A DNA stretch of 64,000 bases from an uncultured Gammaproteobacteria bacterium (GTDB taxonomy: Bacteria > Patescibacteriota > Patescibacteriia > UBA9934), in assembly GCA_964452565.1 (NCBI GenBank), contig CAYVLY010000001.1:142638-206637 (forward strand). Direction: 5' to 3'. Each line of letters begins with the position of its first letter. Position 1 is the first letter of the stretch. The notes beneath the pieces were generated by a model, which was not told where the DNA came from, made no database searches, and saw only the letters and a list, made by a program, of their open reading frames with translations. This document shows positions 15,866 through 34,999 of the stretch, piece after piece. Position numbers and translations under genes: made by a program.

Positions 15866-15930
15866 CTCAGCGGCAGAGCAATTGGCTGTTAACCAATGGG
15901 TCGTGGGTTCGAATCCCACCCCCGGAGCCA
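15856..15930 (+). tRNA. tRNA-Asn(GTT)
   Basis: Manual fold: acceptor TCCGGGG/CCCCGGA, D-arm GCTCAGCGGCAGAGC, anticodon stem ATTGG/CCAAT with loop CTGTTAA, T-arm GTGGGTTCGAATCCCAC, encoded CCA. Confidence 0.85.
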
Positions 15931-17541
15931 AGAAGAATGGATGGTAGAAATACCTTCCATTTTTCTTTTGTCTTGGCTATTTTTGTTTGGTTCTAACCTT
16001 AGGTACTCCTTTTCGAGTTCAGGATAGCTCTCTGCGATAGGTACGAACCATTCGTTCAGTTGAATCTTTAGGTTTCCGTCAATAATCTCAAAGTCTGATC
16101 CGAGAGCATTAAGAATCTCACGCTTAGTTCTAACGTCTCCATTTAAGAACCTCGTGTGAGCGTATGTTGCAAAATCAAAAGTCTGCTCTGTAAGCTCTAT
16201 CCATTTTTCTGCTCGTTGTTCTGTTCGTTCGATTTCTGACTTGTACTTTTCTAACTCGGACTTGATGCGTGCCTTTTCTTTTAGGTATTCCTCATCATTT
16301 ATGAGTTCCTTTATCCTCATCTTTGTAAGGCTGTCCATCTCATTCTGCTTCATCTGATAAGCCTTTGTTTGAGTTTCGTAAACCTGAGTTCGTTTCTTTA
16401 CTTCTTTTTCATGTTCATTGCCCAACACCTCAAGAGCCCAGTCCCGAAACTGCGGAAGAATCGTGATTTTTATAAGTTCACGTTCAATCTGCTCTTCGAT
16501 GTTCTCAACTCGTAGGTTTTTGCGCTGTGTGCAGTCAATATCACGCTTTTTGTTCGTACAATGATAGTAAGTGTAGTGTTTTACCTCTTTCGTTGACTTG
16601 ATGAACTTTTGCTTGGTTTGTGCTGTGTAGTTACAGCCACATTCTCCGCATCTAATCATTCCAGTAAATGAAAACTCATGTGTTCTGGGCCTTGGCTTTC
16701 CCCGTTTGCCAAGTAGCCTTTGAACACGGTCAAACTCATCGAGGGTGATCATGGGCTCGTGTGCACCCTGTTTCCATTCTTTACGATATGAAAATAAACC
16801 AGCATAAAAGGCGTTGTTGAATATTCTATAAACTCCGCTGTATGAAAGAGGATTTCCCCCTATACGTTTCATTTTTCTACTAGTCAGGCCCCATTCGTTA
16901 TTTGCTATATCTACGATTTGCCTTGGTGTATACGTGCCAGTAAGCATAAGGTCCCACATCTTCCTTACTATTTGGAACCGATCTGGGTCTGGGATAATGA
17001 TATGCGTTTCATCGTCTGTAACATGGTTCAGATATCCCAGAGGAGCCATATTGGGCATCCAGCCCAATTCAACCTTTCGCTCCATGCCTCTGATGGTATT
17101 TTTTCTAAGATCAAGGATGAATTGGTTCGCAACACCGCTCTCAACACTCAAAATCAAGGCATTGTCATTTGGTCTGTACTCTCTATCAAATGTGCGAACT
17201 GATTGAAGTATCTCTTTTTGCAAAAGCCACTGGATAGTCCCGCTATCAACTGGGTTTCTCGATAGACGATTGATTTGCCAGCAGAGAATACCCTCAGCGT
17301 CACCTTTACGAATTCTTTGAATCATATCCTCAAAAACAGGCCTATTGTTTGGCTGCTTTGCCGACTTGGACTCTGTGAGACGATCAACAACTGTCAGACC
17401 AAGCTCTTTTGCGAGCTTGTCTAATCTTTCGAGCTGATCATCAATTGATTGTACCTGCCGATCCTCACTTTCTGAGGACTTTCTAGCGTATATAAAGTAT
17501 TTCATATAATCGTAATCAAAAGGACGGTTCTGGCTACCCAA
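15889..17541 (-). CDS. large serine recombinase (resolvase/integrase family)
   Basis: N-terminal catalytic domain YARKSSESEDRQVQSIDDQ... (Ser-recombinase motif); recombinase and zinc-ribbon domains (CGECGC...YYHC); C-terminal 18 aa are antisense translation of tRNA-Asn. Confidence 0.85.
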   Translation of the reverse strand: MGSQNRPFDYDYMKYFIYARKSSESEDRQVQSIDDQLERLDKLAKELGLTVVDRLTESKSAKQPNNRPVFEDMIQRIRKGDAEGILCWQINRLSRNPVDSGTIQWLLQKEILQSVRTFDREYRPNDNALILSVESGVANQFILDLRKNTIRGMERKVELGWMPNMAPLGYLNHVTDDETHIIIPDPDRFQIVRKMWDLMLTGTYTPRQIVDIANNEWGLTSRKMKRIGGNPLSYSGVYRIFNNAFYAGLFSYRKEWKQGAHEPMITLDEFDRVQRLLGKRGKPRPRTHEFSFTGMIRCGECGCNYTAQTKQKFIKSTKEVKHYTYYHCTNKKRDIDCTQRKNLRVENIEEQIERELIKITILPQFRDWALEVLGNEHEKEVKKRTQVYETQTKAYQMKQNEMDSLTKMRIKELINDEEYLKEKARIKSELEKYKSEIERTEQRAEKWIELTEQTFDFATYAHTRFLNGDVRTKREILNALGSDFEIIDGNLKIQLNEWFVPIAESYPELEKEYLRLEPNKNSQDKRKMEGISTIHSSWLRGWDSNPRPIG

Positions 17542-17558
17542 CTGCGCCTATACCAAAG

Positions 17559-17633
17559 TATCCCGCTTGCTGGCAGAACCGCCCATTTGAGGCAGTAAAC
17601 GGAATAGTTCTATATTGGTATTCAGTTGGGTAG
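17559..17633. promoter_or_regulatory. nested imperfect inverted repeats upstream of serine recombinase gene (candidate recombinase binding/att-like site)
   Basis: GGCTACCCAACTG ... CAGTTGGGTAGC plus GGTTCTGGC...GCTGGCAGAACC. Confidence 0.3.
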
Positions 17634-17641
17634 CACACTGA

Positions 17642-18256
17642 TTATAACTTATTTCGCAACATCATTTCCAGTTCTTCTGCCCTTGGCGCAGACCCCTCAT
17701 AACGAGAAAGTCTTTTCAGATATCTGAGGTATCGCTTCGTGGGCCGTCCTTTCCAGTATTTATACTTGACCTCCGTATTCATTAAATAGCCTTCAGCCTT
17801 GAATAGCTTCCCCAGAGCTCCAAAATAGCCCGTGTGCGTCTCTTGCTGGCTTTCATAGGCCAGATCATAGCAATGCCTGCACCCAAAGTATTTATCCGCT
17901 AAATAGAGGCTGCCTACACGCCTTCTGCAAGGAATTCCATCTTTCACAAGAGGACATGTAAACCAGTAACGAACCCCGCCGAAGTAACAAGGGGTAGTTG
18001 TTAGATCTACACTGTAATCTAAATCTTCACTCTCACCATTCCATCTGGTAGTTGATGTATAGGTGCATCTCATTGTTGAGTTGGTATTATCAACTAATAT
18101 ACTGATCCTGCCAGTAACTTCTCCGCATCTTCTCCAAGTGATTTCACCGCCCACATAATGAGGTTGAAGATAACCTAGCCTCTTAAGGGAGGTTGTACTG
18201 AGGTCTTTGTGCTCCTCGCATGTTTCTTTGCGCATAACCCTTTTTATCGAAATCAA
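17642..18256 (-). CDS. Cys-rich hypothetical protein (island)
   Basis: 204-aa ORF with multiple CxxC-like pairs. Confidence 0.35.
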   Translation of the reverse strand: MISIKRVMRKETCEEHKDLSTTSLKRLGYLQPHYVGGEITWRRCGEVTGRISILVDNTNSTMRCTYTSTTRWNGESEDLDYSVDLTTTPCYFGGVRYWFTCPLVKDGIPCRRRVGSLYLADKYFGCRHCYDLAYESQQETHTGYFGALGKLFKAEGYLMNTEVKYKYWKGRPTKRYLRYLKRLSRYEGSAPRAEELEMMLRNKL

Positions 18257-18262
18257 TAGGAC

Positions 18263-18796
18263 TTATAGGGAATTGTTCATCATTTTATTCTTTGTATCAT
18301 TGTAGCTATCAAGTATCTGTTCTCGTGCTGATTTGCTAGTTTTTTCCGTTTCACTGGGATAGCTTACGCTATCCTGATTTATATTTTCTTCTTTTATATT
18401 ATCTTCACTTAGCTTCTCTTGTGCTTCATAACCGAAGGCAGGTGACAGACCATTGGCAACCAAAATATCCGAATAATCGCTAGGTTTGCTTCTATCTCTA
18501 CGAAGGGTTTGATACTTGTGCCAATTAGGATGGTAACCTGCTAGTCCCTTTTTTGTTTCACCTATGGTGATTAGCCCGCAGCCATGCATCTCATCAAACA
18601 TCTTTTCAATGGTCGGTACGCCAATCCTGTCGCTATGAAAGACTTTACGTTTCCAATATCTCGCATCTGCACGAAAACATCCCTCATCATCTGCTCCAAC
18701 TACTAGTCCAATAAACAACAATCTTGCAGTTGGTTTGAGTTGAATAAACTGCTCGCAGTCCCATATTCGTTCATGAACCATTCTTTTTCTGCTCAT
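18263..18796 (-). CDS. hypothetical protein (island; possibly replication-related)
   Basis: 177-aa ORF in the same operon as the recombinase. Confidence 0.3.
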   Translation of the reverse strand: MSRKRMVHERIWDCEQFIQLKPTARLLFIGLVVGADDEGCFRADARYWKRKVFHSDRIGVPTIEKMFDEMHGCGLITIGETKKGLAGYHPNWHKYQTLRRDRSKPSDYSDILVANGLSPAFGYEAQEKLSEDNIKEENINQDSVSYPSETEKTSKSAREQILDSYNDTKNKMMNNSL

Positions 18797-18989
18797 AATT
18801 ATTTTTAATCATAATTTGTCTTTTTTTGGTTCCCGATAATTCACCTGAGGTAATTGGCGCATAGCATATTTTTATGGCGCTCAGAAGCCTTGTAGCTCGA
18901 TCTAAGGCCTCTTGTACCTCAAGACGGTATCCGAACTCTTGCTCGAATAAGTAAATAAAGCTCTCAAGTTGTTGTTTTGAGAGCTCCAT
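18771..18989 (-). CDS. small hypothetical protein
   Basis: 72-aa ORF, TGA stop, overlaps the next gene by 26 nt. Confidence 0.25.
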   Translation of the reverse strand: MELSKQQLESFIYLFEQEFGYRLEVQEALDRATRLLSAIKICYAPITSGELSGTKKRQIMIKNNYEQKKNGS

Positions 18990-18991
18990 AA

Positions 18992-19246
18992 CTACGATCG
19001 TGCTCGATACTTCAACATTCGCAGGTTCTCATGAAAAGAACGTGCATCAACATCTAGCTTGTTGCTCCAGTAAAGTGCCACGATCTCATCAATTTCATCG
19101 TCACGTTCGAAGGTAAATTTTGCTTTCAATGGATTGGACTTATCAATTGCTTTAACAACATATCCAACAGTGGAAAGCGCAGTCGAAAGTCCAATATCTG
19201 AATTAACCAAATACTGAGCTAAGGGAAGGTGTTCTGGTCTTTGCAT
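18992..19246 (-). CDS. small hypothetical protein
   Basis: 84-aa ORF. Confidence 0.3.
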   Translation of the reverse strand: MQRPEHLPLAQYLVNSDIGLSTALSTVGYVVKAIDKSNPLKAKFTFERDDEIDEIVALYWSNKLDVDARSFHENLRMLKYRARS

Positions 19247-19318
19247 AATGTAATATGTAACAAAACTAGGTTATAAACCTAGTTTCATATACTTTGTTTT
19301 TTCTGTCGTGACAGGAAA

Positions 19319-20233
19319 TTACATCTTTCTTGTCTGGTCAAACCTAGATGACTCTTGCACCAGTCTCTTTATAAGTTTATTTATGGCCTCAAAAGTTAGG
19401 TCATCACTGTACTTTTCGTCCAGTCTTACTGCAATCTCAGATAGTTTCATGCCTTTGCGCTGCATGATGTAGGCGTCAAGGGCCTTGGGAAGTGCTTGCT
19501 TCCTACTATCCTTTCTAGCTGGCACGGGAAGTTCTTTTTCTCGTTCCTTTTGTATCTCCTTGTAATTTGTCTGAAGTAGCCTCTGCATTTCTTTTAAATT
19601 GCAATATGGCGGAAAGCTGACTTTTAAAACTGTTTCTGCACTATCTTTTTCAATTTCTATTGACAGTTTGCCACTGTGTTGTTTCCTTGTGAAATTGGAA
19701 TTCAGCCAGTATGGTGGCCCCTCACGTTCATCATAGACTGTATTTTGGATGATAATATTATCAAGAATCGGTGGAAGGAAAGTGAATTCCGCATCTTCGT
19801 ATGCCATAAACTGAGCACGCTCCTTACTCATCCCCCTTTCGGATATATATTCCTTAACTTTGAAGGGCGTGAATCTGAAGTGGTCATGCCAGTAAAGCGA
19901 TGGAATTAATTTGTATTTCTTGATCAGTTTTTCGATTCTTTTTCTATACGCATCGCTATGATTTTGCGCTATAAAATTGCGTACAATCTTGGTCGAGTCC
20001 ATGCTGTCTGTTGGAATGAGAAACTTGGGATACCATCTCTGAATCGTGCTTCTAATTAAATTCACGTCGAATACAAAGTCTTCATTTATACAGAGGTAGA
20101 CCAACTCCTCGATAATTTGCATGTCGTGATCGTCATAAAAGTTGTAAGTAGCTAACTCGTCAAAAAGAATAGCCAAGCTATCGAGTTGGATTGGTTCAGG
20201 ATCTAATATAATCTTAATCTCATCTTCATCCAT
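19319..20233 (-). CDS. hypothetical protein
   Basis: 304-aa ORF, first gene of the minus-strand island operon. Confidence 0.35.
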   Translation of the reverse strand: MDEDEIKIILDPEPIQLDSLAILFDELATYNFYDDHDMQIIEELVYLCINEDFVFDVNLIRSTIQRWYPKFLIPTDSMDSTKIVRNFIAQNHSDAYRKRIEKLIKKYKLIPSLYWHDHFRFTPFKVKEYISERGMSKERAQFMAYEDAEFTFLPPILDNIIIQNTVYDEREGPPYWLNSNFTRKQHSGKLSIEIEKDSAETVLKVSFPPYCNLKEMQRLLQTNYKEIQKEREKELPVPARKDSRKQALPKALDAYIMQRKGMKLSEIAVRLDEKYSDDLTFEAINKLIKRLVQESSRFDQTRKM

Positions 20234-20324
20234 ACTAGTAAATTACAACCTAATTATTACTTAGTAAAGGTTCACGAAAGAACTTTATCGTGGTTTAATG
20301 TAAATTGATTAAATTAAATTAGAT

Positions 20325-20948
20325 ATGGGCACAGTTACTACGATACTATTAGGACTAATTGCGTACATTTTATGGCGTATTTATAGACAGCGAGAGGATG
20401 AGAAGACCGAGCAATATGCTGCAAAATTACGAGAAAAGAGGGATGCAGAGCGGGCCATTTTTGAAAAGCAGTACCCCCATCTTATCGGCAATGTAGACCA
20501 TACTTGGATAGAGCTTTTTTCTAAGTATGCAGAACAAGGTTTGTTGTTGAAAATGTCATTCTTGCTATATCTGCAAGACTCAACAAAGATGGAGCTCTCC
20601 GAGGGCTCTATAAAATGGGATGACCTATGGGCACTCTCAGAGGAGCTGTTAGAACATCTGGAAAAGTATCACGAAGGTACAGTGGAAGAGCATGAGTTGG
20701 CACTTGCTGCATACTGGCAAAATGCCGCTACGGCTGTTGGAAAGCTAATCGAACAGAGCCCCACAATAAAGGGAGAAGATATTGACGCACCACCTTTCAC
20801 AAACATAATAGAGATTCCGAATTTTTTTCCCAAAAAAGAAATACACCCAGAGCAGGAATTTAATTTCATGGAGCCTGATCACTCTTTTCCCAGAAATGCG
20901 AATGGATCTGATCACATTAGGGCAAAAATGAAAAAACAGGGAATTTGA
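20325..20948 (+). CDS. membrane-anchored hypothetical protein
   Basis: N-terminal TM helix, 207 aa. Confidence 0.35.
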   Translation: MGTVTTILLGLIAYILWRIYRQREDEKTEQYAAKLREKRDAERAIFEKQYPHLIGNVDHTWIELFSKYAEQGLLLKMSFLLYLQDSTKMELSEGSIKWDDLWALSEELLEHLEKYHEGTVEEHELALAAYWQNAATAVGKLIEQSPTIKGEDIDAPPFTNIIEIPNFFPKKEIHPEQEFNFMEPDHSFPRNANGSDHIRAKMKKQGI

Positions 20949-20960
20949 TATTAATATAAA

Positions 20961-21860
20961 GTGGATATGGAAAATCACCTAATGTATTTAGATGAATCGG
21001 GCGTTGCGAATCTGGGAGATCAGAAACATAAATACTTTTTTATAACATCGGTAACAGTTGAAAGGAGCATTGACAGAGAGGTCTCTGCTTACTTCAGTTT
21101 CATAAAAAGGCGTCATGGATTGGATTGCAAAAATACTTTGCATGCTTATGATGTTTTTGAAAATAAGGGGCATGAAAATTACATAACAGAAAATAAAATC
21201 TGTAAAAAAATTGCCAATTCGATCGGTGAATTTGTAGAGAACGCACCTTTTGATATCAGGGTCTACTATATAGATAAAGATAAGTTAAGAAAAAAGATGG
21301 GTGTCCCTGAAGGCTATCAATTCAAAGGTGCCCAGAAGCACAAAGAGGATAAGGAGTTGCCTTATGAAATAATTGCCAGAAAACATTTCTTTGAATTTGC
21401 TAAGTATTTAAAAAAGAAGAGGGCCATCGGGTCAGTAATTGCTGAAAGTAGAAGGGGGGCTGACAAAATCCTACTAACATCATATCTAGACGCTCAAGAT
21501 AAAAATATTTTCAGTAAAGATAAACAAATGTTCAAAAATGCAACCCTCGCCAAAGAACACATACATTCTATTTGTTTTGCTGGTAAGGGAAGTCTGAAAG
21601 GTGGGCTAGAATTTGCTGATATTATTTCTTATTGCGCATACAATGACATTGCTGGCAATTTCCCAGAACAAAGGAATGACAGTAGGGGCATCAAAGTAAT
21701 GTGGGGGCAAATAAAAAAACAGATTTATAAATCTGCTCCTCAAGAAATTACGCCTGCCATGATGAAGAAATTGGCAAATGATAGGATTAACGAGAGCGCC
21801 AAGCGTGTTAAGCAGAGACTGTCTGAATTCAGCGACCTCGTGAATCCCACCCGAAGGTAA
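20961..21860 (+). CDS. hypothetical protein, DUF3800-like (LDESG motif near N-terminus)
   Basis: MYLDESGVANLGD... start resembles DUF3800 family proteins. Confidence 0.3.
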   Translation: MDMENHLMYLDESGVANLGDQKHKYFFITSVTVERSIDREVSAYFSFIKRRHGLDCKNTLHAYDVFENKGHENYITENKICKKIANSIGEFVENAPFDIRVYYIDKDKLRKKMGVPEGYQFKGAQKHKEDKELPYEIIARKHFFEFAKYLKKKRAIGSVIAESRRGADKILLTSYLDAQDKNIFSKDKQMFKNATLAKEHIHSICFAGKGSLKGGLEFADIISYCAYNDIAGNFPEQRNDSRGIKVMWGQIKKQIYKSAPQEITPAMMKKLANDRINESAKRVKQRLSEFSDLVNPTRR

Positions 21861-21958
21861 GAGTCCACTTAACTAAAAAGTAACAGTTATTTAGGCGATA
21901 GTAAAGTGGATATTTATTGAAATTGATTAAATGAGCTAATTTTACACTACTTTTAGCT

Positions 21959-22570
21959 ATGAATGCTATCAAAGAAAAGTTGCTAAAGACTATAAGATCA
22001 AATATAAAGTATAAATCTATACAGGATATAGATCGTATTGATTTCAAGTCCTTTAAAGCACTTATAAGGGCAGTTGAGATGGGTGAAATAAAATTAGGCA
22101 TGGATAACACCGCTGCTAATCAACTGGCAAGAACGAAGATATTTGGAGCTTTTAGCTTTTACCTTTTTATGTTCCTAGCAGCGTCTTGGATGTGGGTTTC
22201 CATTGCTGCGATTGTATTGGCCGTTTTAATGTCGGAATATTGGCTACTGGCTGCTATCCCAGTTTCTATTATCGGGTTGATGACTGCTAATCCGTATAAT
22301 CCAGCAAAAAAGTTTTTTAGCCTAGTATTCATCATTCTCTGCATTTACGTATTATTCGGATTAATAGGTGGCTTTGAGACACTGCACTATTTGTCACTCT
22401 CCTACGTTATTGTATTTCTGGCGACAGCCTATGTTTATGACATGAACCAAAAGCTAATGCATGATTTAGCACTGGAGTCGGAGGAATGGTTTATTTATCT
22501 ATTTCAAAGTAGAGCCGTAGCGATTTTGGAAGATGGCAAGAATCCTATAACGGAAGAGATCGAGTTATGA
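21959..22570 (+). CDS. polytopic membrane hypothetical protein
   Basis: Several hydrophobic helices. Confidence 0.35.
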   Translation: MNAIKEKLLKTIRSNIKYKSIQDIDRIDFKSFKALIRAVEMGEIKLGMDNTAANQLARTKIFGAFSFYLFMFLAASWMWVSIAAIVLAVLMSEYWLLAAIPVSIIGLMTANPYNPAKKFFSLVFIILCIYVLFGLIGGFETLHYLSLSYVIVFLATAYVYDMNQKLMHDLALESEEWFIYLFQSRAVAILEDGKNPITEEIEL

Positions 22571-23223
22571 ATGAGTATTCAAAAGAACTAGCTGCGAAAT
22601 ACACTCAAGGGCGTGATGAGTTTAAGGATGCTGACTCAAAGCTCTTTGAATTTGTACAACGAGTTGGCATTGAAGATAAGGACGTGCTGGATCTTGGATG
22701 TGGAGATGGAAGATATGCTGCAAAGTTTATCGAAATGGGTGCAGGGAGTGCTAAGGGTATTGATATAAGCCCTGCAATGATTGAATTGGCCAAGGAGCGA
22801 CGAAGTAACATCGAATTCACAATTGGAGACGCAGTAGATTTGCCATATGAAGATAATAGCTTTGACATTATCTTTAGCAACTTTGTACTTCAGCACTGTA
22901 AAGATACTCGAAAGGTCTTTAATGAAATTGCACGAGTATTAAGAAAAGATGGATATTTTGTCGGTACATTTAACTCAATAGACACTGATAATAAGGGAAT
23001 CCTGAATCAGGAGATGCCCATTCTACTCGGTCAAGATAATCCAATTACTGTTTACGACCTAATGAAGCTCGATGAAGAGTATCTTGAAGCCATTAAAGAC
23101 GCTGGACTGGAAGTGATTGAATACGTCGACGAACCAAATGCCTGCGCCTTTATAGATCCAAATTTCGAGCACTATTCGGATATTAAAAAGTTAAAGACTA
23201 TCGCTTGTTTGTTAAGAAAATAA
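22567..23223 (+). CDS. class I SAM-dependent methyltransferase
   Basis: Motif I VLDLGCGDGRY; DIIFSNFVLQH. Confidence 0.65.
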   Translation: MNEYSKELAAKYTQGRDEFKDADSKLFEFVQRVGIEDKDVLDLGCGDGRYAAKFIEMGAGSAKGIDISPAMIELAKERRSNIEFTIGDAVDLPYEDNSFDIIFSNFVLQHCKDTRKVFNEIARVLRKDGYFVGTFNSIDTDNKGILNQEMPILLGQDNPITVYDLMKLDEEYLEAIKDAGLEVIEYVDEPNACAFIDPNFEHYSDIKKLKTIACLLRK

Positions 23224-23224
23224 T

Positions 23225-23725
23225 ATGAACATTGCATTAGATGATAAGCTGGAGAAAGCAGTCCGACTGCTCATTGAGTACGTTCCTGAGGAAAAGGATC
23301 GAAAAAAGAACATAATTACACATGCTCTCAGGGTCGGAATGTACCTTTATGAGAATAATTACTCAGAAGATGTTGTAATTGCTGGATTTTTACACGATAT
23401 AGTTGAATGGACTGATAGCCCGCAGGAGACACTTCGGGAAGAATTCGGTCAGCATGTGTTGGATATAGTACTCGCAAATACTAAAGATAGAAATATTGAA
23501 GATAAGCCAGAGCGAAGAAGGGATATGATTGAGCGCTGTCAAAGCGTTGGGAAGGACGCCCTTATCGTGAAGGCCGCAGACACAATTGATAGCTATAACT
23601 TTTATAGATCGGCAAACAACCCAGATGAGACGCAAAGAGCAATCGACATAGCAAAACTTTTATCAAGCGTGGTTACACAGGAGGAGAAAGATCCAATTTT
23701 CGATAAGTTAAGTGCTCTTGAATAG
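23225..23725 (+). CDS. HD-domain phosphohydrolase
   Basis: HALRVGMYL ... AGFLHDIVE (H...HD motif). Confidence 0.6.
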   Translation: MNIALDDKLEKAVRLLIEYVPEEKDRKKNIITHALRVGMYLYENNYSEDVVIAGFLHDIVEWTDSPQETLREEFGQHVLDIVLANTKDRNIEDKPERRRDMIERCQSVGKDALIVKAADTIDSYNFYRSANNPDETQRAIDIAKLLSSVVTQEEKDPIFDKLSALE

Positions 23726-24172
23726 TTCTAACAGCATCAACCGTGCGGAGCCATGAAGGAGTGACCAGTTTTGGTCGCTTTTTCTTTTTGGTCACCCTTC
23801 ATGGCTGTCGCCCTAAGTGATACGAGCCCAGCGAGTATCTACTTCTGGGCGAGCCATAGTATAATTAGGGCATGTATTACGTTTACATATTAAAATGTAG
23901 CGACAACAAATTCTACACGTGATACTCTGCAGACTTAAAGAAAAGGTTGCAATTACACCTATCTGGACGAGTGTTCTCGACCAAGGGTAGATTGCCAGTC
24001 GAGTTAGTATTCTATGAGGCATTTATAAATCAGCAAGATGCCAAGCGTCGTGAGATGTACTTGAAGACCACTGCTGGCAAAAGAGCAATTAAACTCATGC
24101 TTCGCAAATATCTCGCAAAACAATAACTTACAGTGTTATTTTGTATACCCATCGTGAACAGCGGAACTGTGG
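23721..24172 (+). repeat. direct repeat copy 1 (~450 bp) carrying GIY-YIG gene; near-identical to 25603..26054
   Basis: Identical sequence apart from the first ~25 nt; contains long hairpin GCCATGAAGGAGTGACC...GGTCACCCTTCATGGC, a TATAAT box, the GIY-YIG ORF and a terminal hairpin. Confidence 0.85.
23872..24126 (+). pseudogene. GIY-YIG (UPF0213) gene with in-frame TGA at conserved Gly codon (disrupted under code 11; intact if UGA=Gly)
   Basis: MYYVYILKCSDNKFYT[TGA]YSADLKKRLQLHLSG...LVFYEAF...; TGA at 23920-23922 replaces the Gly of the YTG motif. Confidence 0.6.
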
Positions 24173-24204
24173 TAAAATTATAAGTGTTAATATAATTGTG
24201 ATTT

Positions 24205-25065
24205 ATGATAGATAAACCAGTTCCCGAGGAGGCAAGAAAAGAATTTGAAAGGATGCAAAATCCAGAAATTGTCGCAACTGATTTAGAGGGTAATGCTCCT
24301 GAAGTTGGTGCTACAAAAATTATTATGCAGAGGCATGAAAAATATGTGCGGGGCGATGACGAGGGTCAGCCATTGGGTAGTCTAACTGAAGAATCAGCAG
24401 AAAAAGCATATCAACAAAGCAGAAGAATAGTTGAACAAATGCTAGATTCTATTGAGGATGATTTAGATGAGATCGATTTTCTTGTAGTTGGCAGTAGTAC
24501 ACAATATAAGGGCAAGGGACAAAGGAGCAGAGAGACTGCACAGCAAGCACTTCAAGCTTTACGTGACGTGCTTGAAGAGAGGGGTGTTGATGGTGGTCAG
24601 ATATTAAACAATAGATCAAAAGCAAAAGATGTAGCCACGATCACTCGAATGAGAGTAGATAGGATATTCAATGAATGGCCAGAGTACGCAGCTTTTCTTG
24701 AAGATAAATACGGAAATCAAACACAAAAATTTTGGCAGGCTTTTGAAGAAGATTGGCACCCTTATGAAAGAAGGGCATTTGGTGCAGAGGGGCCTGATGA
24801 AATGGACGAAAGATTTGCAAGTTATATAAAAACACTTGCTAAGTTTTCCGGTTTTCACCATTCAAAGCATCAAGATAGACGGCTGGTTCTCTGGAGCGTA
24901 TCGCATTACGATACAGTAAGTCCCTATATAAAACGTCACATAACTATGACGGATCCAAACCAATATGTGGCTGTTGATTACGGTGCAGGGATCAATATAG
25001 ATATTGATCCTGATGGGAATCCTACATGTGACTTTCGTGGGAAAAAATACGAAGTTAGTCTTTAG
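24205..25065 (+). CDS. histidine-phosphatase-superfamily-like protein (paralog of 28620..29522)
   Basis: RHEKY near N-terminus and LWSVSHYDTV (RH...SH motifs); aligns with the 28620 ORF. Confidence 0.4.
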   Translation: MIDKPVPEEARKEFERMQNPEIVATDLEGNAPEVGATKIIMQRHEKYVRGDDEGQPLGSLTEESAEKAYQQSRRIVEQMLDSIEDDLDEIDFLVVGSSTQYKGKGQRSRETAQQALQALRDVLEERGVDGGQILNNRSKAKDVATITRMRVDRIFNEWPEYAAFLEDKYGNQTQKFWQAFEEDWHPYERRAFGAEGPDEMDERFASYIKTLAKFSGFHHSKHQDRRLVLWSVSHYDTVSPYIKRHITMTDPNQYVAVDYGAGINIDIDPDGNPTCDFRGKKYEVSL

Positions 25066-25067
25066 AT

Positions 25068-25595
25068 ATGCTTACAAAGTTTTGTGACGCAGAAACGATC
25101 TTCAATAAGTTTCTAAAAAAGTATAAACAACATAAACGAGGTCTTTTCATCGTTGCACCATCGGGCGCAGGAAAGACATATTATGTTAATCATCAGGATG
25201 AATATGATTGGATTGATGGTGACGAAATTTGGATGGCAACAGGCGCTCAGCCTGACAGGGCATGGTGGACCGAGGGTTTAGAAGTTATAAATCACGTAGA
25301 TCAAAGGTGCGATGTTACAACTGAAGAGTGTAGACGTTTGGGATTATGGGTGATAGGAGCGTCCAACTCTTGGCTCATCCCTGATGCCGTAGTAATTCCA
25401 GATTTAAGAATTCAAAAAAAATACATAGTCAAGCGTGAAGACGAAGCATATGACGGAGGTGCAACGAGCAAGGACTTTGATCAAGTTATTTCTCATAGAA
25501 AGATAATTCTAAACCACGCTAAGAAAAATAAAGTGCCAGTATTCAAAACTATCGAGGAGGCAGTGGCTTTTCTCAGGAAGAAGTACAGTATGTAA
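25068..25595 (+). CDS. P-loop NTPase / small kinase-like protein
   Basis: Walker A VAPSGAGKTYYV. Confidence 0.45.
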   Translation: MLTKFCDAETIFNKFLKKYKQHKRGLFIVAPSGAGKTYYVNHQDEYDWIDGDEIWMATGAQPDRAWWTEGLEVINHVDQRCDVTTEECRRLGLWVIGASNSWLIPDAVVIPDLRIQKKYIVKREDEAYDGGATSKDFDQVISHRKIILNHAKKNKVPVFKTIEEAVAFLRKKYSM

Positions 25596-25602
25596 GCATG
25601 TT

Positions 25603-26054
25603 AATAGTTCTAATATCCTCCACGATGCGGAGCCATGAAGGAGTGACCAGTTTTGGTCGCTTTTTCTTTTTGGTCACCCTTCATGGCTGTCGCCCTAAGT
25701 GATACGAGCCCAGCGAGTATCTACTTCTGGGCGAGCCATAGTATAATTAGGGCATGTATTACGTTTACATATTAAAATGTAGCGACAACAAATTCTACAC
25801 GTGATACTCTGCAGACTTAAAGAAAAGGTTGCAATTACACCTATCTGGACGAGTGTTCTCGACCAAGGGTAGATTGCCAGTCGAGTTAGTATTCTATGAG
25901 GCATTTATAAATCAGCAAGATGCCAAGCGTCGTGAGATGTACTTGAAGACCACTGCTGGCAAAAGAGCAATTAAACTCATGCTTCGCAAATATCTCGCAA
26001 AACAATAACTTACAGTGTTATTTTGTATACCCATCGTGAACAGCGGAACTGTCA
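25603..26054 (+). repeat. direct repeat copy 2 (~450 bp) carrying GIY-YIG gene
   Basis: Offset 1882 bp from copy 1, identical interior. Confidence 0.85.
25754..26008 (+). pseudogene. GIY-YIG (UPF0213) gene copy 2 with the same in-frame TGA (25802-25804)
   Basis: Identical to 23872..24126. Confidence 0.6.
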
Positions 26055-26068
26055 TAAAATATGAAGTT

Positions 26069-26719: not shown

Positions 26720-26834
26720 ATTAACAAACGGAGCCACAAAAAGAGATAGGTATAATACATATCTCTTTTTGTTGTTTCGTGTCTGAGGGTTTTAAGCCAC
26801 TGGGTTCGGGCAGCTAGGATATAGGGAGGTGCCC

Positions 26835-27955: not shown

Positions 27956-28618
27956 ATGAAGTTAGAACTAAATGCCAAGAAAATACTTAAAACGCTCCTG
28001 CTTATCAATCTCATTTTGATAATCATGCACCTTATTTCGCAGTTCATGCTTTTAAATTTTGAGTATTCTGAGGCGCTTGCGAACTTTGCATTTAGATTTA
28101 ACATGGATGTTGAATCAAGTGTCCCAACATGGTTCGCTATTGTACTTTTATTTTCAACAGCACTACTCCTATTACTTATTGGTCTGAAGACGCGAAAAAA
28201 GAAGCAAAAAAAGTACTGGCTTGCGCTTTCTGCAGTTGTTCTATATATGAGCATTGATGAGGCCTCGGTTATACACGAGCTAATGAATGAGCCAATGCAA
28301 CAATTATTTGGTATTACAAGCGGGCCTTTGTTCTTTGCCTGGATCATACCTTTCTCATTGGTAGTATTGATTGTGGTGGCTGTATTTGCAAAATTTTACT
28401 GGTCGTTAGATCGTAAAACAAAATTGCTATTCGCGTTGGCTGTGAGCCTATTCATCCTTGGCGCAATAGGCGTTGAAATGATCTCAGCGGCACACTGGCA
28501 ATCACAGGACTTCCAGTACGACTACACCTACCGCATCCTCAATGCCTTTGAGGAGGGCTTGGAGAACTTTGGAACGATAACCGCAATCTACGCACTTAGC
28601 TTAAAACTAACAAAATAA
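27956..28618 (+). CDS. polytopic membrane hypothetical protein
   Basis: 220 aa, multiple TM helices. Confidence 0.4.
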   Translation: MKLELNAKKILKTLLLINLILIIMHLISQFMLLNFEYSEALANFAFRFNMDVESSVPTWFAIVLLFSTALLLLLIGLKTRKKKQKKYWLALSAVVLYMSIDEASVIHELMNEPMQQLFGITSGPLFFAWIIPFSLVVLIVVAVFAKFYWSLDRKTKLLFALAVSLFILGAIGVEMISAAHWQSQDFQYDYTYRILNAFEEGLENFGTITAIYALSLKLTK

Positions 28619-28619
28619 T

Positions 28620-29522: not shown

Positions 29523-29536
29523 ATGAGCATCAAACT

Positions 29537-30529
29537 ATGAAGATATTTCTGAAAGTAATGACAAGGCCAATTAGTCTTTTTGATTGTGAGCGTTGGGATA
29601 TTGGTGAAAGAATCATGCTGCCGAAGAAATACATGAAGCTCCTCTATTTTGATCCATTGTTTATCTATTCTCCTGGGAGGGGAGTATCTGTTTTTTATAA
29701 CTATAGTGATCCTGGGCAGATTGTAGATCCGTTGATTGATTTTTTGTCAGATGATATCGAATGGTACAAAAAAATGGAGACAAAGTCTCATAACGACTGT
29801 GACCAATTGAAGAAAATGGTTGATCAAGAATCAAAAGATGCTGATGGTTTGCTAAAACTCATACTCGAGGTTAGCGCAACGCAAGCTGTAGCAAATTTGC
29901 TAGGAAGTACTGATGCTTACAATGTGCCAAAAGAAGTGCAAGAAATATCTATTCGTGTACGAGATTACAGTAACAAAATCTTTCACCAAGCAATTGCATA
30001 TGTAAGTAAGGTGATTGCAGAAGAACTTGGTAACAAGGATCTAGATTTTGTTTCTATGTCAGAAGTCACTGAGAACAAATTACCGTCAAAAAGTGAAATA
30101 TCTAAAAGACAGAAAGGTTGGTTATACTATAGGGGAGACATTTCGTTGGATCCGAAAAAATACATTGCTGACAATAAAATCAAGTTAATGCAGGAAATTT
30201 TTGATGCCAATGAAGAGATCAGAGGACAGACTGCATGTAAAGGTCAGGCCGAAGGGAAGGCAGTAGTCATCTTCGAACTTGACGATCTAAAAAGGGTTCA
30301 GAAAGGCAATATTATAGTTGCGCCCATGACTACTCCTGACATGATGACTGCAATAGGTAAGGCTGCGGCAATTATCACAGATGAAGGAGGTATTACATGT
30401 CATGCAGCTATAGTGAGTAGGGAATTGAAAATTCCATGTATCATTGGAACTGGAAATGCAACAAAGATGATAAAAGATGGTGATTTGTTGAAGGTAGATG
30501 CAAATAATGGGGTTGTTGAGAAGCTATGA
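29537..30529 (+). CDS. PEP-utilizing enzyme mobile (phosphohistidine swivel) domain protein
   Basis: C-terminal GGITCHAAIVSRELKIPCIIG matches the GGxTSHAAIVAREL swivel-domain motif of PEP synthase/PPDK/rifampin phosphotransferase. Confidence 0.55.
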   Translation: MKIFLKVMTRPISLFDCERWDIGERIMLPKKYMKLLYFDPLFIYSPGRGVSVFYNYSDPGQIVDPLIDFLSDDIEWYKKMETKSHNDCDQLKKMVDQESKDADGLLKLILEVSATQAVANLLGSTDAYNVPKEVQEISIRVRDYSNKIFHQAIAYVSKVIAEELGNKDLDFVSMSEVTENKLPSKSEISKRQKGWLYYRGDISLDPKKYIADNKIKLMQEIFDANEEIRGQTACKGQAEGKAVVIFELDDLKRVQKGNIIVAPMTTPDMMTAIGKAAAIITDEGGITCHAAIVSRELKIPCIIGTGNATKMIKDGDLLKVDANNGVVEKL

Positions 30530-30575
30530 TTGAGTTTTTTAGGAAAAGGTTGTAGTATCTGGACATAAAAAAGAT

Positions 30576-31475
30576 ATGGAATGCAAATCCTGCGGAAAAA
30601 CTGAAAAGACTAAATTTCTGAAAAAAATAAAGAAATTTCGAATTTATCACTGCTTATGCTGTGATCTTATTTTTTCAAGGACTCAAATATGCTCTAGTAG
30701 AAAGTGGTATGAAAAAGTTCTTGCCGATAGGACAGCCATGGTCTCACCAGAAGTTTGGCTAAAATGGCAGGTAAAAGTATATGGTAGATTTTTAGAAAAG
30801 CCATCTTGTGAACGGACTCTATTAGATGTAGGGTGCGGCGATGGTGAATTTCTAAAACAAGCTAAGGATCGTGGATATGTCGCTACTGGAATTGACCTCA
30901 ATAGGATACTAGTGTCCAAAATCAAACAGAAATATGATCTGGACATTCACGCAATCAGCATTGAAGACTTTGTTGAGCAATTTCCAGAAAAAAAATTCGA
31001 CATCGTTACATTTTTCCAGGTCTTAGAGCATATGGTTGATCCTGACCATTTTATGAGCTTAATAAAGAGTAGGTTAAATAACCGGGGGTGTGTCGCGTTG
31101 AGCGTTCCAAATAGAAATCGTTTTGAACTTGACCTAAAAAGGTTTCCAAAATGGGACTCCCCACCACATCATTACACCTGGTGGAGTAAAAAATCCTTGA
31201 AGAAGTTTTTGATAGCTAGAGGATTGAAGGTCTTGGATCTGGTTGTGTTTAAAAAGGAAATAGAACTTGAGTTCAGATCTAGAGATAGTAAAGATAAATA
31301 CCCCGGATTAATCAAGCGCTTACCATTTTGCGGCATGCTGAAATACTTTTCCTACAAAAATATTATTGCTCCAATTCTGTTAGGACTTAAGGTGAGACGA
31401 GTCATTCATTTAAAAATCACAGTACAAGGCCCTTATCTATATGCACTAGCCATGCACACAAATGAGAATTTATAG
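30576..31475 (+). CDS. SAM-dependent methyltransferase with N-terminal zinc ribbon
   Basis: CKSCGK...CLCC, then LLDVGCGDGEFL motif I. Confidence 0.6.
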   Translation: MECKSCGKTEKTKFLKKIKKFRIYHCLCCDLIFSRTQICSSRKWYEKVLADRTAMVSPEVWLKWQVKVYGRFLEKPSCERTLLDVGCGDGEFLKQAKDRGYVATGIDLNRILVSKIKQKYDLDIHAISIEDFVEQFPEKKFDIVTFFQVLEHMVDPDHFMSLIKSRLNNRGCVALSVPNRNRFELDLKRFPKWDSPPHHYTWWSKKSLKKFLIARGLKVLDLVVFKKEIELEFRSRDSKDKYPGLIKRLPFCGMLKYFSYKNIIAPILLGLKVRRVIHLKITVQGPYLYALAMHTNENL

Positions 31476-31481
31476 AGTGAT

Positions 31482-31512
31482 AAAAAAGACCGCCTCGAGG
31501 GCGATCTTTTTT
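31482..31512. terminator. bidirectional terminator
   Basis: AAAAAAGACCGCCCTCGAGGGCGATCTTTTTT. Confidence 0.5.
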
Positions 31513-31523
31513 AATCTTGATGA

Positions 31524-33722
31524 TTAATATTTGAATGACACCTTGTCTTTGTACTCGTATGCTCCGCGGTCGATCTTTGAACCATACTTTTCCCAATCTG
31601 CATAATATTCAGATATATCAACTCCTGAATCAATTGCTGGTGACATAGATTTCAAGGAGAAGTCGAATGCAAGCGCATCAGTGAACTCTGGATCAACGAA
31701 TAAGTCGTTTTCACCAGCAGTTGTGCCGTCCTTACTTTGTCCATATTGAGGATTTCGGCAAGACTGTCCGCGCTTAGAATCATCACAACTAGCGTCCTTT
31801 CCATTATTACCACTCAAAATATTGTAATCATGATTTGTACCTGGATCTAGAATTCCAGCAGAAGCATTGAAGTACACGATATTATTGAGCATCGCAATAT
31901 CGTCGCTCTCAAGTGATGTCAGACCGGATTCTTCATTACATGCGATTGTATTGTTAAGAGCTTCACCTGTTGCGCCTTCAGTAAAGACGATTCCACCCTT
32001 TTTATTCCAGTAAACATCATTACCAACAATCGTACAGTGACTATCACCATATTCAGAACCATTACATGCGATTCCGCGTTTTGTGTTACTAAACGACTTG
32101 TTATCCACGATAAGAACGTAACTGTCATCCATTACATACCCTTCATCCTCACCAGCGTATTCATTTCGAACTGCAATTCCAGATACTTTAGTGTCGTATA
32201 CAATGTTTCCTTGGATGATTACAGGTTCATCTGGGAGTCCAGCGCCATCAATCGCGATTCCACCCATGTTTTCCTCTGGGGTACCTCCAAATCCATTATC
32301 AAACACGATGTTGTTAAGAATCACAGACTGAGTTCGCTCATCAATATGATTGCAGGTTGTTGGATCCTCAGCGCACTCATCAGCTGGCTGTAGGTATCCC
32401 TGTCGCGCAGCAATTCCTACCCACGCGTTTTCATACACAATGTTGTACGAGATAAGAGTTTTTGCACCATGCCGGTTTCCAATACCTGGAGACTGATGGT
32501 CAGACTCTTCCCCTGGGACCTGGTTCCAGAATGCCTCATTTCCTGTCATTACAGCACTTGAATAGTGGTTATTACCTAAACCAAGCCCATTGTTTTGATA
32601 TGAGATGTTTCCGTAAACAAGTGGTACTGGTCGATATTTGACGTTGCTACTACGATAATCTGCATTAGTGAATGTTGCTTGCTCCAGCGACGGATCATAC
32701 GCACATGATGGAGTAATAGGCGTGATGTCCTCGAAACTTGCGTGAACACCAACTCCAGTTGATCCGTTATTGAAGATTATGTTATTCGCGATTATCGGAG
32801 ACCCACCACGAGCCTGAAGTGTATGTCCATGACCTGGGATAGTGTGATCTTGCTCAGGCATAAGAGTCACAGTGAATCCATCAAATACGGTATTACGAGT
32901 CGTTCCTTCAACAAAATCCACCATTGGGCGTCGATTTCCACACCCAGTTCCATCAACTGATGGATCGATCGTATCTCCAAGTGTTGGACCCCCTTCATAC
33001 CCCTCACCCATGAGGATAGTACGTGTTGATCGAAGTAGGGGATCTGTATAAGTCTCATGCTCCTCCATCACGATACGCTCTCCAGTTTCGTAGTAATGCT
33101 CGAGATCAATGCGTTCAGCTGTATAATCTACGCGTTCGTTTCCATCTTGCTCTGTCCCATCCTCATTCCATACGTCAGAGTAGATCTGCACATCCTTACC
33201 TTCGATCCTTAGGTATTCTTGATATACACCAGGACGGACAATAATCATATCGCAGTGTACTGATGCATCAATTGCACCTTGAATTGTGTCGTATAAACCA
33301 TCAAAGTCACCATTGATCCATCTTGGATCACTTTCACCCTCCTGACTTACAAGTAATACGTTTTGATTAACTTCATTACATGAAGTTCGGCTTGCCATCA
33401 TTTCAACGTAAGCAATTTCAGCCGCCTCAAAAGGGGCGACTGTGTCAAACTCAGGAACTTCATACCGCTCATCGGCATAAGGATCCTGTGTTGCAATATC
33501 AAAATCTGGATATTCTTCTCCGCAATATTCCTCGTCCTGGCCATCAGCATCGCTGCCGCTTATTCCGGCACGAGTGTAGTCTGTGCTACTAGCATCACTT
33601 GAATCGTGTCCATGGCCGTGATCATCTCCATTTGCATGTGCATGATCATCATCAAACAGGCTACAACCCGACAGTATGATGGATATAATAAAGACAGACA
33701 CTAAGATCGTGAATTTCGTCAT
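31524..33722 (-). CDS. secreted lipoprotein with right-handed parallel beta-helix repeats
   Basis: Lipobox LSGCSLF; His/Asp-rich N-terminus; repeated NNIIFNNG / NNIVFDNG / NNIVY motifs. Confidence 0.55.
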   Translation of the reverse strand: MTKFTILVSVFIISIILSGCSLFDDDHAHANGDDHGHGHDSSDASSTDYTRAGISGSDADGQDEEYCGEEYPDFDIATQDPYADERYEVPEFDTVAPFEAAEIAYVEMMASRTSCNEVNQNVLLVSQEGESDPRWINGDFDGLYDTIQGAIDASVHCDMIIVRPGVYQEYLRIEGKDVQIYSDVWNEDGTEQDGNERVDYTAERIDLEHYYETGERIVMEEHETYTDPLLRSTRTILMGEGYEGGPTLGDTIDPSVDGTGCGNRRPMVDFVEGTTRNTVFDGFTVTLMPEQDHTIPGHGHTLQARGGSPIIANNIIFNNGSTGVGVHASFEDITPITPSCAYDPSLEQATFTNADYRSSNVKYRPVPLVYGNISYQNNGLGLGNNHYSSAVMTGNEAFWNQVPGEESDHQSPGIGNRHGAKTLISYNIVYENAWVGIAARQGYLQPADECAEDPTTCNHIDERTQSVILNNIVFDNGFGGTPEENMGGIAIDGAGLPDEPVIIQGNIVYDTKVSGIAVRNEYAGEDEGYVMDDSYVLIVDNKSFSNTKRGIACNGSEYGDSHCTIVGNDVYWNKKGGIVFTEGATGEALNNTIACNEESGLTSLESDDIAMLNNIVYFNASAGILDPGTNHDYNILSGNNGKDASCDDSKRGQSCRNPQYGQSKDGTTAGENDLFVDPEFTDALAFDFSLKSMSPAIDSGVDISEYYADWEKYGSKIDRGAYEYKDKVSFKY

Positions 33723-33910
33723 AAGCTTTATAATTATATATGCCCATATTAGTTTTTAGGCTTGAATTATGTATCTTTTCAGTATATTCCGGCGTTTTTT
33801 TAAAAACAATAATGATAGTGGGTAACTATCATATTATTTAGCGCCTCTACTTCCTTATACGCCAGTATTCGGAGTTTTGATTCAAAATCGAGGCATTTCT
33901 GCCTCGATCC

Positions 33911-34999
33911 TTACTTTATTACTTTGATCGTATTCACGTTGTCATCCGTGAACCGTATCTTAAATCGAATGACTCCGATTGTCTGGCCGCGTTCGGTTTG
34001 GACGTTCACCCGCCAGAAGCCTTCAGATAACTGAGATTTTCGAGAGTATCCGCGGTAACCCTCATCTCGACCGCCATAAATCTGAAATGAAAGTTCATCT
34101 TTAGTAATCCAACGCTTTGAATCAGAATCAAAATGCTGCCACTCATGGACGATCTGCGTGTTTAAATCGAACGGTGCAAAGATAGCAGAATAGACATAAA
34201 CTGATTGTCCCTCTTCAACATGAATAGTCTCACCTGGAATTATTTTTTCAAAAATGTTCTGACTCTCTGCTTCAAGAATATAATTACCATTAGACCGAGA
34301 TACGCTATGATATACACCACCTTCTGTGAGTGATAATGGGATCGGCGGAATCAGGTTTGTGAAGTACAACAGATTCATGAGGCCAAATATGATTAGCGCG
34401 ATAATCTTGAGTTTCTTTGCAACCGGCCTAAGCTTTGATACTCGATCAACTGCAAATCGAAGATATCCATATCCAATCAATAAACTAAGAATGCCGCCTA
34501 ACACAAAAATCCATGCTGAGATCGAGTTAAACAGATACGGCAGCATCAAAGTCAAAAGCGACAGAGTAATAAAGTAGTATACACTAATCTGAATCACTGG
34601 ACGCATGTAATACTTTCGAAATGCTTCGTTCGCGATCATCAAAAATGCGATCAAGAACATGAATGGCCAGCTTACAGAAAAGGATCCAGAAAACCAATAA
34701 AAGATAAACGAAGCGCTCAATGTAGCACCAAATGTGAATTGGATGATTAGAGGCGCGAGTACTCGATAATATCGAGTTACTATGTTTCGATCAGTTGTTT
34801 CTATTGAACCATTGCGGTGCATAAAAATGATGGTGCCGCCTGCAATGAACCAGTACACGATAAGTACGATAAACGCAGAGCTGATCTTGATAGTTCGAAA
34901 AGTAACAAAATCAACAATTACACCCAAGATCAACATCGTAGGAATCAAAACACGTTCATTGCGCTTGTACCAGCGCTTTAGCTTTGTCAGAAAAAGCAT
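33911..34999 (-). CDS. membrane protein with C-terminal soluble domain (hypothetical)
   Basis: Start moved to internal ATG (MLFLTKLKRW) to avoid a 5' overlap with the divergent gene. Confidence 0.4.
   Translation of the reverse strand: MLFLTKLKRWYKRNERVLIPTMLILGVIVDFVTFRTIKISSAFIVLIVYWFIAGGTIIFMHRNGSIETTDRNIVTRYYRVLAPLIIQFTFGATLSASFIFYWFSGSFSVSWPFMFLIAFLMIANEAFRKYYMRPVIQISVYYFITLSLLTLMLPYLFNSISAWIFVLGGILSLLIGYGYLRFAVDRVSKLRPVAKKLKIIALIIFGLMNLLYFTNLIPPIPLSLTEGGVYHSVSRSNGNYILEAESQNIFEKIIPGETIHVEEGQSVYVYSAIFAPFDLNTQIVHEWQHFDSDSKRWITKDELSFQIYGGRDEGYRGYSRKSQLSEGFWRVNVQTERGQTIGVIRFKIRFTDDNVNTIKVIK

Follow-up and report, generated by a model that had tools for sequence, protein, structure and literature searches.

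A probable 7.8-kb integrative element with its own large serine recombinase at the 3′ end of a tRNA-Asn gene in a Patescibacteria contig

A Probable Integrative Element at the 3′ End of tRNA-Asn

The 64,000-nt window analysed here (contig CAYVLY010000001.1, positions 142,638 to 206,637 of the forward strand; GTDB lineage Patescibacteriota) contains a large serine recombinase (LSR) gene that overlaps the 3′ half of a tRNA-Asn gene on the opposite strand. Our analysis strongly favors the interpretation that this gene belongs to a non-viral, plasmid-like integrative element of 7.8 kb (~15931-23753), which its own LSR probably placed at the tRNA-Asn 3′ end. The left attachment site, attL, consists of tRNA-Asn joined to an element arm at the 8-bp block CGGAGCCA; at the right attachment site, attR1, this block links an attP-type half-site to the hairpin and GIY-YIG gene native to the sequence downstream of the tRNA. 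A preliminary description of this DNA had proposed an island of about 18 kb (15889-34000) with no mark at its right boundary. Both statements need revision: the LSR element ends at 23753 and a second att-bounded unit ends at 25635, and two attR-type junctions (23714-23753 and 25596-25635) are recognizable. The main features are as follows.

15856..15930, plus strand: tRNA-Asn(GTT), the attB-side (B) half-site (ARAGORN; Rfam tRNA, 72.3 bits)
15889..17505, minus strand: LSR gene, 538 amino acids (aa) when integrated (open reading frame [ORF] 15889-17541, 550 aa; Pfam, PHROGs, and sequence inspection)
15923-15930, plus strand: attL core CGGAGCCA, the last 8 nt of tRNA-Asn, common to both attR junctions
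15931..15978, plus strand: element-side arm of attL (P′/E1), a terminator-like hairpin and T-run directly after CCA
23714..23753, minus strand: attR1, an attP-type (P/E2) arm with the CGGAGCCA core at 23746-23753 (pattern match; weight matrix score 35.0 bits)
25596..25635, minus strand: attR2, a second, different attP-type arm with the CGGAGCCA core at 25628-25635 (pattern match; weight matrix score 37.3 bits)

The recombinase ORF (15889-17541) had been recognized as a large serine recombinase from its letters, an assignment that database searches uphold: it has a catalytic Resolvase domain (PF00239, 1.2e-17), C-terminal Recombinase and Zn_ribbon_recom domains (PF07508, 2.6e-9; PF13408, 2.5e-12), and a match to the PHROGs integrase family phrog_95 (1e-72); the A118 integrase structure 4kis matches residues 195-394. 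Residues R8, S10, R80, L81, and R83, invariant among 17 homologues, correspond to Bxb1 residues listed in PMC12884075. By its domains, its catalytic residues, and the logic of its att sites, the protein can be classed from sequence as a bona fide large serine recombinase. The last 14 codons of the integrated gene (WLRGWDSNPRPIG, then a stop) are the antisense of the tRNA-Asn 3′ half, with the W codon opposite CCA and the stop codon TAA opposite TTA of the anticodon loop.

Two forms of attachment arm can be told apart by the spacing of one motif. The T-loop TTCGAAC of the tRNA (attB-type) arm is 17 nt away from the TGG/CCA end; in the attP-type arms, which are found at LSR ends that are not tRNAs, TT[CA]GAAC lies 22 nt from TGG, that is, 5 bp farther out. 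An alignment made with MAFFT, given no prior information, likewise placed a 5-nt gap in the real tRNAs relative to the attP-type arms. Because of this offset, the non-tRNA LSR ends are read as attP and the tRNA forms as attL. A position weight matrix (PWM) trained only on 13 attP-type arms from other loci picked out attR1 and attR2, both in LSR orientation only, with the next best site on either strand at 12.4 bits. The pattern TGG-N19-TT[CA]GAAC, in LSR orientation, occurs in the 64 kb only at 23725-23753 and 25607-25635.

Both attR sites begin with TGGCTCCG, the antisense of CGGAGCCA; the latter occurs seven times on the plus strand of the window and never on the minus strand, with about one occurrence expected. 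Read on the minus strand, attR1 gives SWLR followed by TVDAVRTIQEHLTYRKLDLSPPV and a stop, and attR2 gives SWLR followed by IVEDIRTINMLTYCTSS and a stop; these tails are in frame with, and similar to, the attP-form tails of the recombinase family. The resulting size of the LSR element is 7.8 kb to attR1 or 9.7 kb to attR2. On the tRNA side, the antisense of the attL arm (15931..15978) lies within the last codons of the LSR, and the fold of 15920-15985 has an energy of -24.6 kcal/mol (z = -4.3); analogous hairpins are found at three related loci (L007, L008, and L010).

The same arrangement recurs elsewhere in the family. With a refined PWM, attP-type arms were located upstream of the LSR at 13 loci (L008/9, L013, L022, L030, L036, L041, L044, L047, L055, L070, L076, L087, and L088), always in LSR orientation and 5.6-10.9 kb from the LSR end. 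At L087, where the tRNA is tRNA-Gln, the 7-nt core TGGCTGG is common to attL and the upstream attP-type arm, the element has a length of 5.5 kb, and the host side of the arm has a hairpin and T-run; L087 also carries two attP-type arms in tandem (83 and 571), as in the window. A direct repeat of the tRNA-Asn 3′ half, sought as a far boundary, was absent beyond chance in the window and absent in 30 related loci. Serine integrases normally show no such repeat at the far end.

An 11-mer at the end of the DUF3800 gene (GAATCCCACCC, 21842-21852) was considered as a boundary and rejected; about one chance match is expected, and its spacing is of the attB type.

A Family of Recombinases That Overlap tRNA Genes

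Among 8000 candidates scored, at least 5442 are homologous to the window LSR at E<1e-20, and the named ones come mostly from assemblies of Patescibacteria/candidate phyla radiation (CPR). Nearly all of the best 120 homologues have the C-terminal W-L-R-G-W-D-S-N-P, the antisense of a tRNA 3′ end. The locus sets comprised 87 LSR loci and 82 loci with a full-length homologue; an antisense tRNA is present at the LSR 3′ end in 52 of the 82. The tRNAs are His (14), Asn (12), Gln (8), and Ser (7), then Glu, Arg, Asp, Lys, Trp, and Val, and about ten tRNA species are targeted across the family. The LSRs of L007 (65% identical to that of the window) and L010 (60%) overlap tRNA-Asn by the same 42 nt. 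Many metagenome contigs end within ~40-100 nt past the LSR gene, as would be expected at a polymorphic junction.

Homologues that lack a tRNA end (L011, L012, L013, L040, L072-L074, and several protein matches) share a C-terminal W-L-x-x-V-x-D-V-R-T-x-I tail, often followed by [IL]-x-I-P-x-L. Proteins of this attP form are 551-565 aa long. A check for circular contigs among the attP-form relatives found no terminal overlaps.

One related stretch holds more than one recombinase. At L008/L009 (ERZ1292628, ERZ1292633; 2303-13529), a span of 11 kb holds three serine recombinase genes, along with genes for a ParB-methyltransferase, an S24 peptidase, and TfoX. An attP-type arm forms the end of the first LSR; the middle one ends in degenerate tRNA-like sequence with attB-type spacing and no tRNA gene. 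This cluster may represent nested or tandem elements.

Proposed Mechanism of Integration and Excision

These features are consistent with the following model. The LSR is predicted to carry out recombination between attP and the final ~8 bp of the tRNA gene. Strand exchange would fall within the last ~8 nt of the tRNA, so that the tRNA would remain intact with only 8 bp repeated, and the element arm would provide a terminator-like hairpin after CCA. In the excised circle, which would replicate in the manner of a small plasmid, the LSR gene would cross attP and encode 551 aa (...WLR-TVDAVRT...), compared with 538 aa in the integrated state; integration would swap a 23-aa LSR tail for 10 residues read from the antisense of the tRNA and would set LSR transcription head-on against the tRNA gene. 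Excision would restore the 551-aa protein, a length within the range of the attP-form homologues, with attR1 supplying the tail. A module of five genes (encoding DUF5659, 72-aa, Rep-like, Cys-rich 200-aa, and LSR proteins) would serve circle maintenance, replication, and recombination, and five plus-strand genes would constitute the cargo.

A broader proposal, which we put forward only tentatively and consider doubtful, is that these enzymes form a very large, undescribed Patescibacteria/CPR clade of serine integrases specialized on tRNA 3′ ends, with a gene that runs across attP and a tail that depends on the state of integration. The conserved tail of the attP form (V-x-D-V-R-T-x-I...I-P-x-L) would be exchanged at integration, and the swap might act as a switch of directionality or expression, partly replacing a separate recombination directionality factor (RDF). 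That the tail swap controls directionality is speculation.

Gene Content of the Element

The element has two divergent gene sets, a minus-strand module ending in the LSR and a plus-strand cargo block.

17642..18256, minus strand: Cys-rich partner protein, ~200 aa with four invariant Cys, directly upstream of the LSR
18263..18796, minus strand: replication-initiator-like protein, 177 aa (phrog_1408, 5.4e-15; phrog_16167, 5e-12)
18771..18989, minus strand: 72-aa module protein, with 40-43% identical homologues in the same position at L007, L008, and L010
18992..19246, minus strand: DUF5659 protein (PF18903 at 3e-9), present in 28 of the 87 LSR loci
19319..20233, minus strand: 304-aa protein, first gene of the module operon, with no family match
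20325..23725, plus strand: cargo block, transcribed towards attR1, with the gene for a 207-aa protein first
20961-21860, plus strand: DUF3800 protein (Pfam), with a homologue inside the element of L036
between the DUF3800 and methyltransferase genes, plus strand: 203-aa membrane protein of the cargo block
22567-23223, plus strand: S-adenosylmethionine (SAM) methyltransferase (Pfam)
23225-23725, plus strand: HD_4 protein, RelA/SpoT-hydrolase-like (Pfam; partial match to NCBIfam TIGR00691, 2e-12)

The five co-oriented small ORFs reported earlier behind the LSR, among them the Cys-rich (17642-18256), phrog_1408-matching (18263-18796), and DUF5659 genes, are borne out, and they follow an order conserved in the family: a first gene that varies, followed by those for DUF5659, a ~70-aa protein, the replication protein, the four-Cys protein of ~200 aa, and finally the LSR. 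The first slot is occupied at L007-L013 by positional counterparts of 235-390 aa without sequence similarity. The 177-aa protein is similar only to the N-terminal ~150 positions of phage replication initiators; its slot is filled by a Toprim_2 primase at L007 and L010 and by another protein elsewhere. Homologues of the Cys-rich partner protein are found in the same position at 26 of the 87 loci, and none of its 153 homologues has a Pfam domain. An AlphaFold2 model of this protein (mean local confidence, pLDDT, 90.2; predicted template-modeling score, pTM, 0.69) has a beta-sheet domain followed by long C-terminal helices and matched no entry of PDB or BFVD at E<=0.001; the protein is a candidate accessory or directionality factor. 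No RDF was recognized, and no relaxase or conjugation genes were seen.

The module genes are conserved from locus to locus. The divergently transcribed cargo varies, and elsewhere in the family it includes restriction-modification-like genes, SLFN_AlbA_2, Hypoth_Ymh, an HTH_17 protein, DUF3800, and an enzyme similar to phosphoenolpyruvate (PEP) synthase. In a search with PADLOC, the 218-aa methyltransferase matched the methyltransferase domain of mad2 (1e-22); no described defence system was found, and the other nine scanned proteins had no matches. The earlier suggestion of an integrative element or a defence island is borne out as to an LSR-driven, non-prophage element at tRNA-Asn, whereas the defence function is without PADLOC support.

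The Repeated Downstream Flank and GIY-YIG Units

Beyond attR1 lies a repeated unit, D1, of which the second copy follows attR2.

23744..24170, plus strand: D1 copy 1 (CCA, hairpin 23745-23811, degenerate tRNA-5′-like leader, GIY-YIG 23872-24126)
24171..25595, plus strand: segment B (286-aa gene 24205-25065; 175-aa P-loop gene 25068-25595)
25626..26052, plus strand: D1 copy 2 (GIY-YIG 25754-26008)
15609-15865, plus strand: GIY-YIG gene no. 0, intact (unit 15469..15865; Pfam GIY-YIG, 5e-16; repeat families D2 and D12)

The two D1 copies, each 427 nt long, are 100% identical, and the D1 hairpin folds at -37.6 kcal/mol (z = -4.6). At L097, tRNA-Gln is followed without interruption by the same hairpin, the leader, and a 69%-identical GIY-YIG gene, and another GIY-YIG gene precedes the tRNA. 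The window with 15931-23753 removed has this same architecture (GIY-YIG no. 0, tRNA-Asn, hairpin, GIY-YIG no. 1), and for this reason D1 is best read, from the comparison of the two loci, as the sequence that natively follows tRNA-Asn (B′).

Each of the identical D1 copies is preceded by its own, different attP-type arm. The 1.9-kb segment between the arms may be what is left of an earlier insertion, after which D1 was duplicated or gene-converted; it may be a small unit without a recombinase; or it may reflect an assembly problem at the 427-nt perfect repeat. If real, the unit could be either such a remnant or a sequence able to loop out by homologous recombination. Segment B contains no recombinase, and its 286-aa and 175-aa proteins have no family match in Pfam, PADLOC, or NCBIfam.

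Both D1 copies of the GIY-YIG gene are interrupted by one in-frame TGA, which takes the place of the Gly in the conserved Y-x-G motif. Homologues with 65-75% identity are uninterrupted and 84-87 aa long, and TGA serves as the stop codon in 10 of 65 host genes. The D1 gene is either a nonsense pseudogene that was later duplicated or a gene from a donor in which UGA encodes Gly (code 25).

On the other side of the tRNA, GIY-YIG gene no. 0 runs into the 5′ end of tRNA-Asn; it is, to judge from this layout, a selfish element in its own right, located 5′ of the tRNA. Decaying copies of the tRNA-Asn 5′ end precede it, one comprising positions 1-13 (15469-15481) and a second comprising positions 1-31 with a 19-nt palindromic insert (15551-15601); these look like traces of repeated insertion of a GIY-YIG element bearing a replacement tRNA 5′ half. 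At L095 (5830-6380), an attP-type arm (WLALLNDFRTF) and GCGAGCCA are followed by a D1-like hairpin and GIY-YIG unit; the tRNA-Asn-3′-like CCCCGCCCCCGGAGCCA and a terminator lie behind the GIY-YIG gene, around which there are direct repeats of ~40 nt. GIY-YIG units and LSR elements seem to use the same tRNA 3′-end/terminator site.

Extent of the Element and Alternative Interpretations

Several observations weigh against an element bounded at 23753. The low codon-usage score of genes in 15889-22570 (average ~0.026; host mean 0.071, sd 0.047) speaks for it, but the shift stops near 22.6 kb rather than at 23.75 kb, and the methyltransferase and HD genes of the element have host-like codon usage. 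The GC content of the element equals that of the host; in the GC profile of the window, the region is like its flanks except at deoD. Simple integration does not account for a single attL with two attR-type sites. Exact-protein look-ups found only two samples with the same arrangement, in which the public short-read contigs break exactly at the edges of D1, and neither an empty site nor an excised circle of the window element was recovered; a scan for an empty site in relatives, using the Na/Ca exchanger, returned only an archaeal 46% match. The naming of the arms also leans on general background from work on A118/LI, in which the zinc-ribbon-domain motif of attP half-sites of serine integrases is shifted 5 bp outward relative to attB half-sites.

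The single 18-kb island (15889-34000), moved as one unit by the LSR, is highly improbable. The LSR does adjoin the tRNA, many genes of the tract are without family assignment, and the deoD gene is foreign; however, attR-type junctions occur at 23753 and 25635, the elements of the family measure 5.6-10.9 kb, no att signal is present near 34 kb, and the beta-helix and DUF2914 proteins have host-like codon usage. Also improbable is the view that each attR site is the 3′ stump of a dead LSR gene in attP configuration, with the true far boundary elsewhere or lost. The minus-strand VTKKKKRPKLVTPS-WLR-tail across each site loosely resembles an LSR C-terminus, but no LSR similarity is found to the right of either site, where a GIY-YIG gene on the opposite strand fills the space, the K-rich stretch is explained as the antisense of the terminator T-run, and L097 has the same hairpin and GIY-YIG gene directly after a real tRNA. 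A prophage or phage satellite, to which the PHROGs matches of the integrase and the replication initiator might point, is likewise very unlikely: as had been noted before, phage structural genes are missing, with no gene for a capsid, portal, terminase, tail, or lysis protein among the ORFs of the window scanned against PHROGs and Pfam or among the gene calls listed for those related elements that were looked up; a search of IMG/VR found no close relative of the LSR; and the size is only 5.6-10.9 kb. A satellite lifestyle is nevertheless conceivable.

A possibility with somewhat more in its favor, though still less likely than not, is that the tRNA-Asn 3′ end is a composite accretion hotspot in which the 7.8-kb element is the newest and lies nearest the tRNA, while older ones lost the recombinase and, farther out, also the att arms. 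The tract up to ~31.5 kb would then be old cargo, and the 18-kb estimate loosely right. This old cargo would comprise the S51, deoD, 300-aa, PEP-swivel, and methyltransferase genes. The genes from 26 to 34 kb, all outside both attR sites, encode an S51 peptidase, deoD, a membrane protein, a 300-aa protein, a PEP-swivel protein, a second methyltransferase, and a beta-helix lipoprotein; the family assignments of the preliminary description for the plus strand (DUF3800, two SAM methyltransferases, HD_4, S51, PNP_UDP_1 [deoD], the PEP-utilizers swivel domain, and the 732-aa beta-helix protein) were all recovered with Pfam. One further feature of the tract is relevant.

26729..26780, plus strand: third CGGAGCCA with a 26-nt inverted repeat (I3) hairpin and T-run, directly after the S51 gene

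In favor of accretion are the two tandem attP-type arms, a pattern repeated at L087, and this third CGGAGCCA with its hairpin, which has no attP-type arm (PWM -5.4) and may be a decayed att junction. The deoD gene is clearly foreign. Two weak hints are that L055 carries, within its att-bounded element, a homologue of the PEP-utilizer (39% over 189 aa), and that the 286-aa protein, inside attR2, has a distant paralogue outside it in the 300-aa protein, a relationship suggested earlier and found to hold (20% identity, E 2e-4). Against it, no attP-type arm above 12.4 bits is present past 25635, and no remnants of an LSR or of the partner protein occur elsewhere in the window. Codon usage from 22.6 to 35 kb is host-like (~0.057 for 22567-35000) except at deoD (-0.196), and the PEP-swivel protein is the only one encoded in this tract that recurs in the 87 LSR loci. 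Canonical serine integrases are not known to target attL. The 7.8-kb element with attL and attR1 as its ends remains the reading that we prefer.

Relation to Known Integration Systems

Like the phage serine integrases (A118/LI, Bxb1, phiC31, and TP901-1), the window enzyme has the domain architecture and the residues Ser10, R8, R80, L81, and R83; its att sites are short, with a small shared core and no long direct repeats, the half-sites differ by a 5-bp shift of the outer motif, and attP lies beside the integrase gene. Unlike them, the window family targets tRNA 3′ ends, the ORF would read through attP and so have a C-terminus that varies with the state of integration, and the carrier is a 6-11 kb plasmid-like CPR element. 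The tRNA 3′-end target class, covering many tRNA species, and the ORF across attP are the distinguishing features. tRNA genes are the classic targets of tyrosine integrases, and serine integrases are generally catalogued by the protein-coding genes that they disrupt; tRNA 3′ ends would be a new target class for the latter. In the large catalogue of LSRs by Durrant et al., tRNA is nowhere mentioned (PMC10083194). In a literature search, neither tRNA-targeting serine integrases nor these CPR elements were found to have been described before, although absence cannot be proved in this way; the LSR family is apparently large, undescribed, and tRNA-targeting.

Islander-type and pSAM2-like islands resemble the element in that the tRNA 3′ end is the target, the tRNA is kept intact, and the integrase gene adjoins it, and pSAM2 and other actinomycete integrative and conjugative elements are similar in spirit as small replicative integrative elements (PMC2440964). 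The window enzyme is, in contrast to those of Islander-type islands, a serine rather than a tyrosine recombinase, and 8 bp are repeated, compared with a displaced tRNA fragment of 15-60 bp. An att site inside the integrase ORF and a gene altered by integration are found also in SSV-type integrases, which are tyrosine recombinases with a gene split into two parts; here only the last ~10-25 codons of the LSR would be exchanged, for codons antisense to the tRNA. The closest known case of an att site within a serine integrase gene is provided by the rumA-targeting integrative and conjugative elements of Streptococcus, in which one direct repeat lies inside the serine integrase gene (PMC4701971).

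The E2 arm together with the core offers a simple signature by which mobile elements can be delimited in CPR genomes, where composition hides islands. Many natural integrases with short, conserved attB sites in tRNA genes would be of interest for genome engineering, and the integration-state-dependent C-terminus of the LSR provides a testable idea on the control of directionality.

Other Observations

A high-GC cassette at 26781-27725 contains deoD (26899-27639), a PNP_UDP_1 purine nucleoside phosphorylase gene that had been singled out for its GC content; its GC of 0.60 and third-codon-position GC of 0.72 confirm that it is compositionally foreign. The cassette is flanked by a direct repeat, CTAGAATGATG (26839-26849 and 27713-27723), and appears, from its composition, to be a recent transfer from a high-GC donor.

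Further along the window, the first gene of a seven-tRNA array (59676-59751) is reported by ARAGORN as tRNA-??? with a four-base anticodon (ccag); its Rfam score is 41.8 bits, compared with 60-70 bits for its neighbors.

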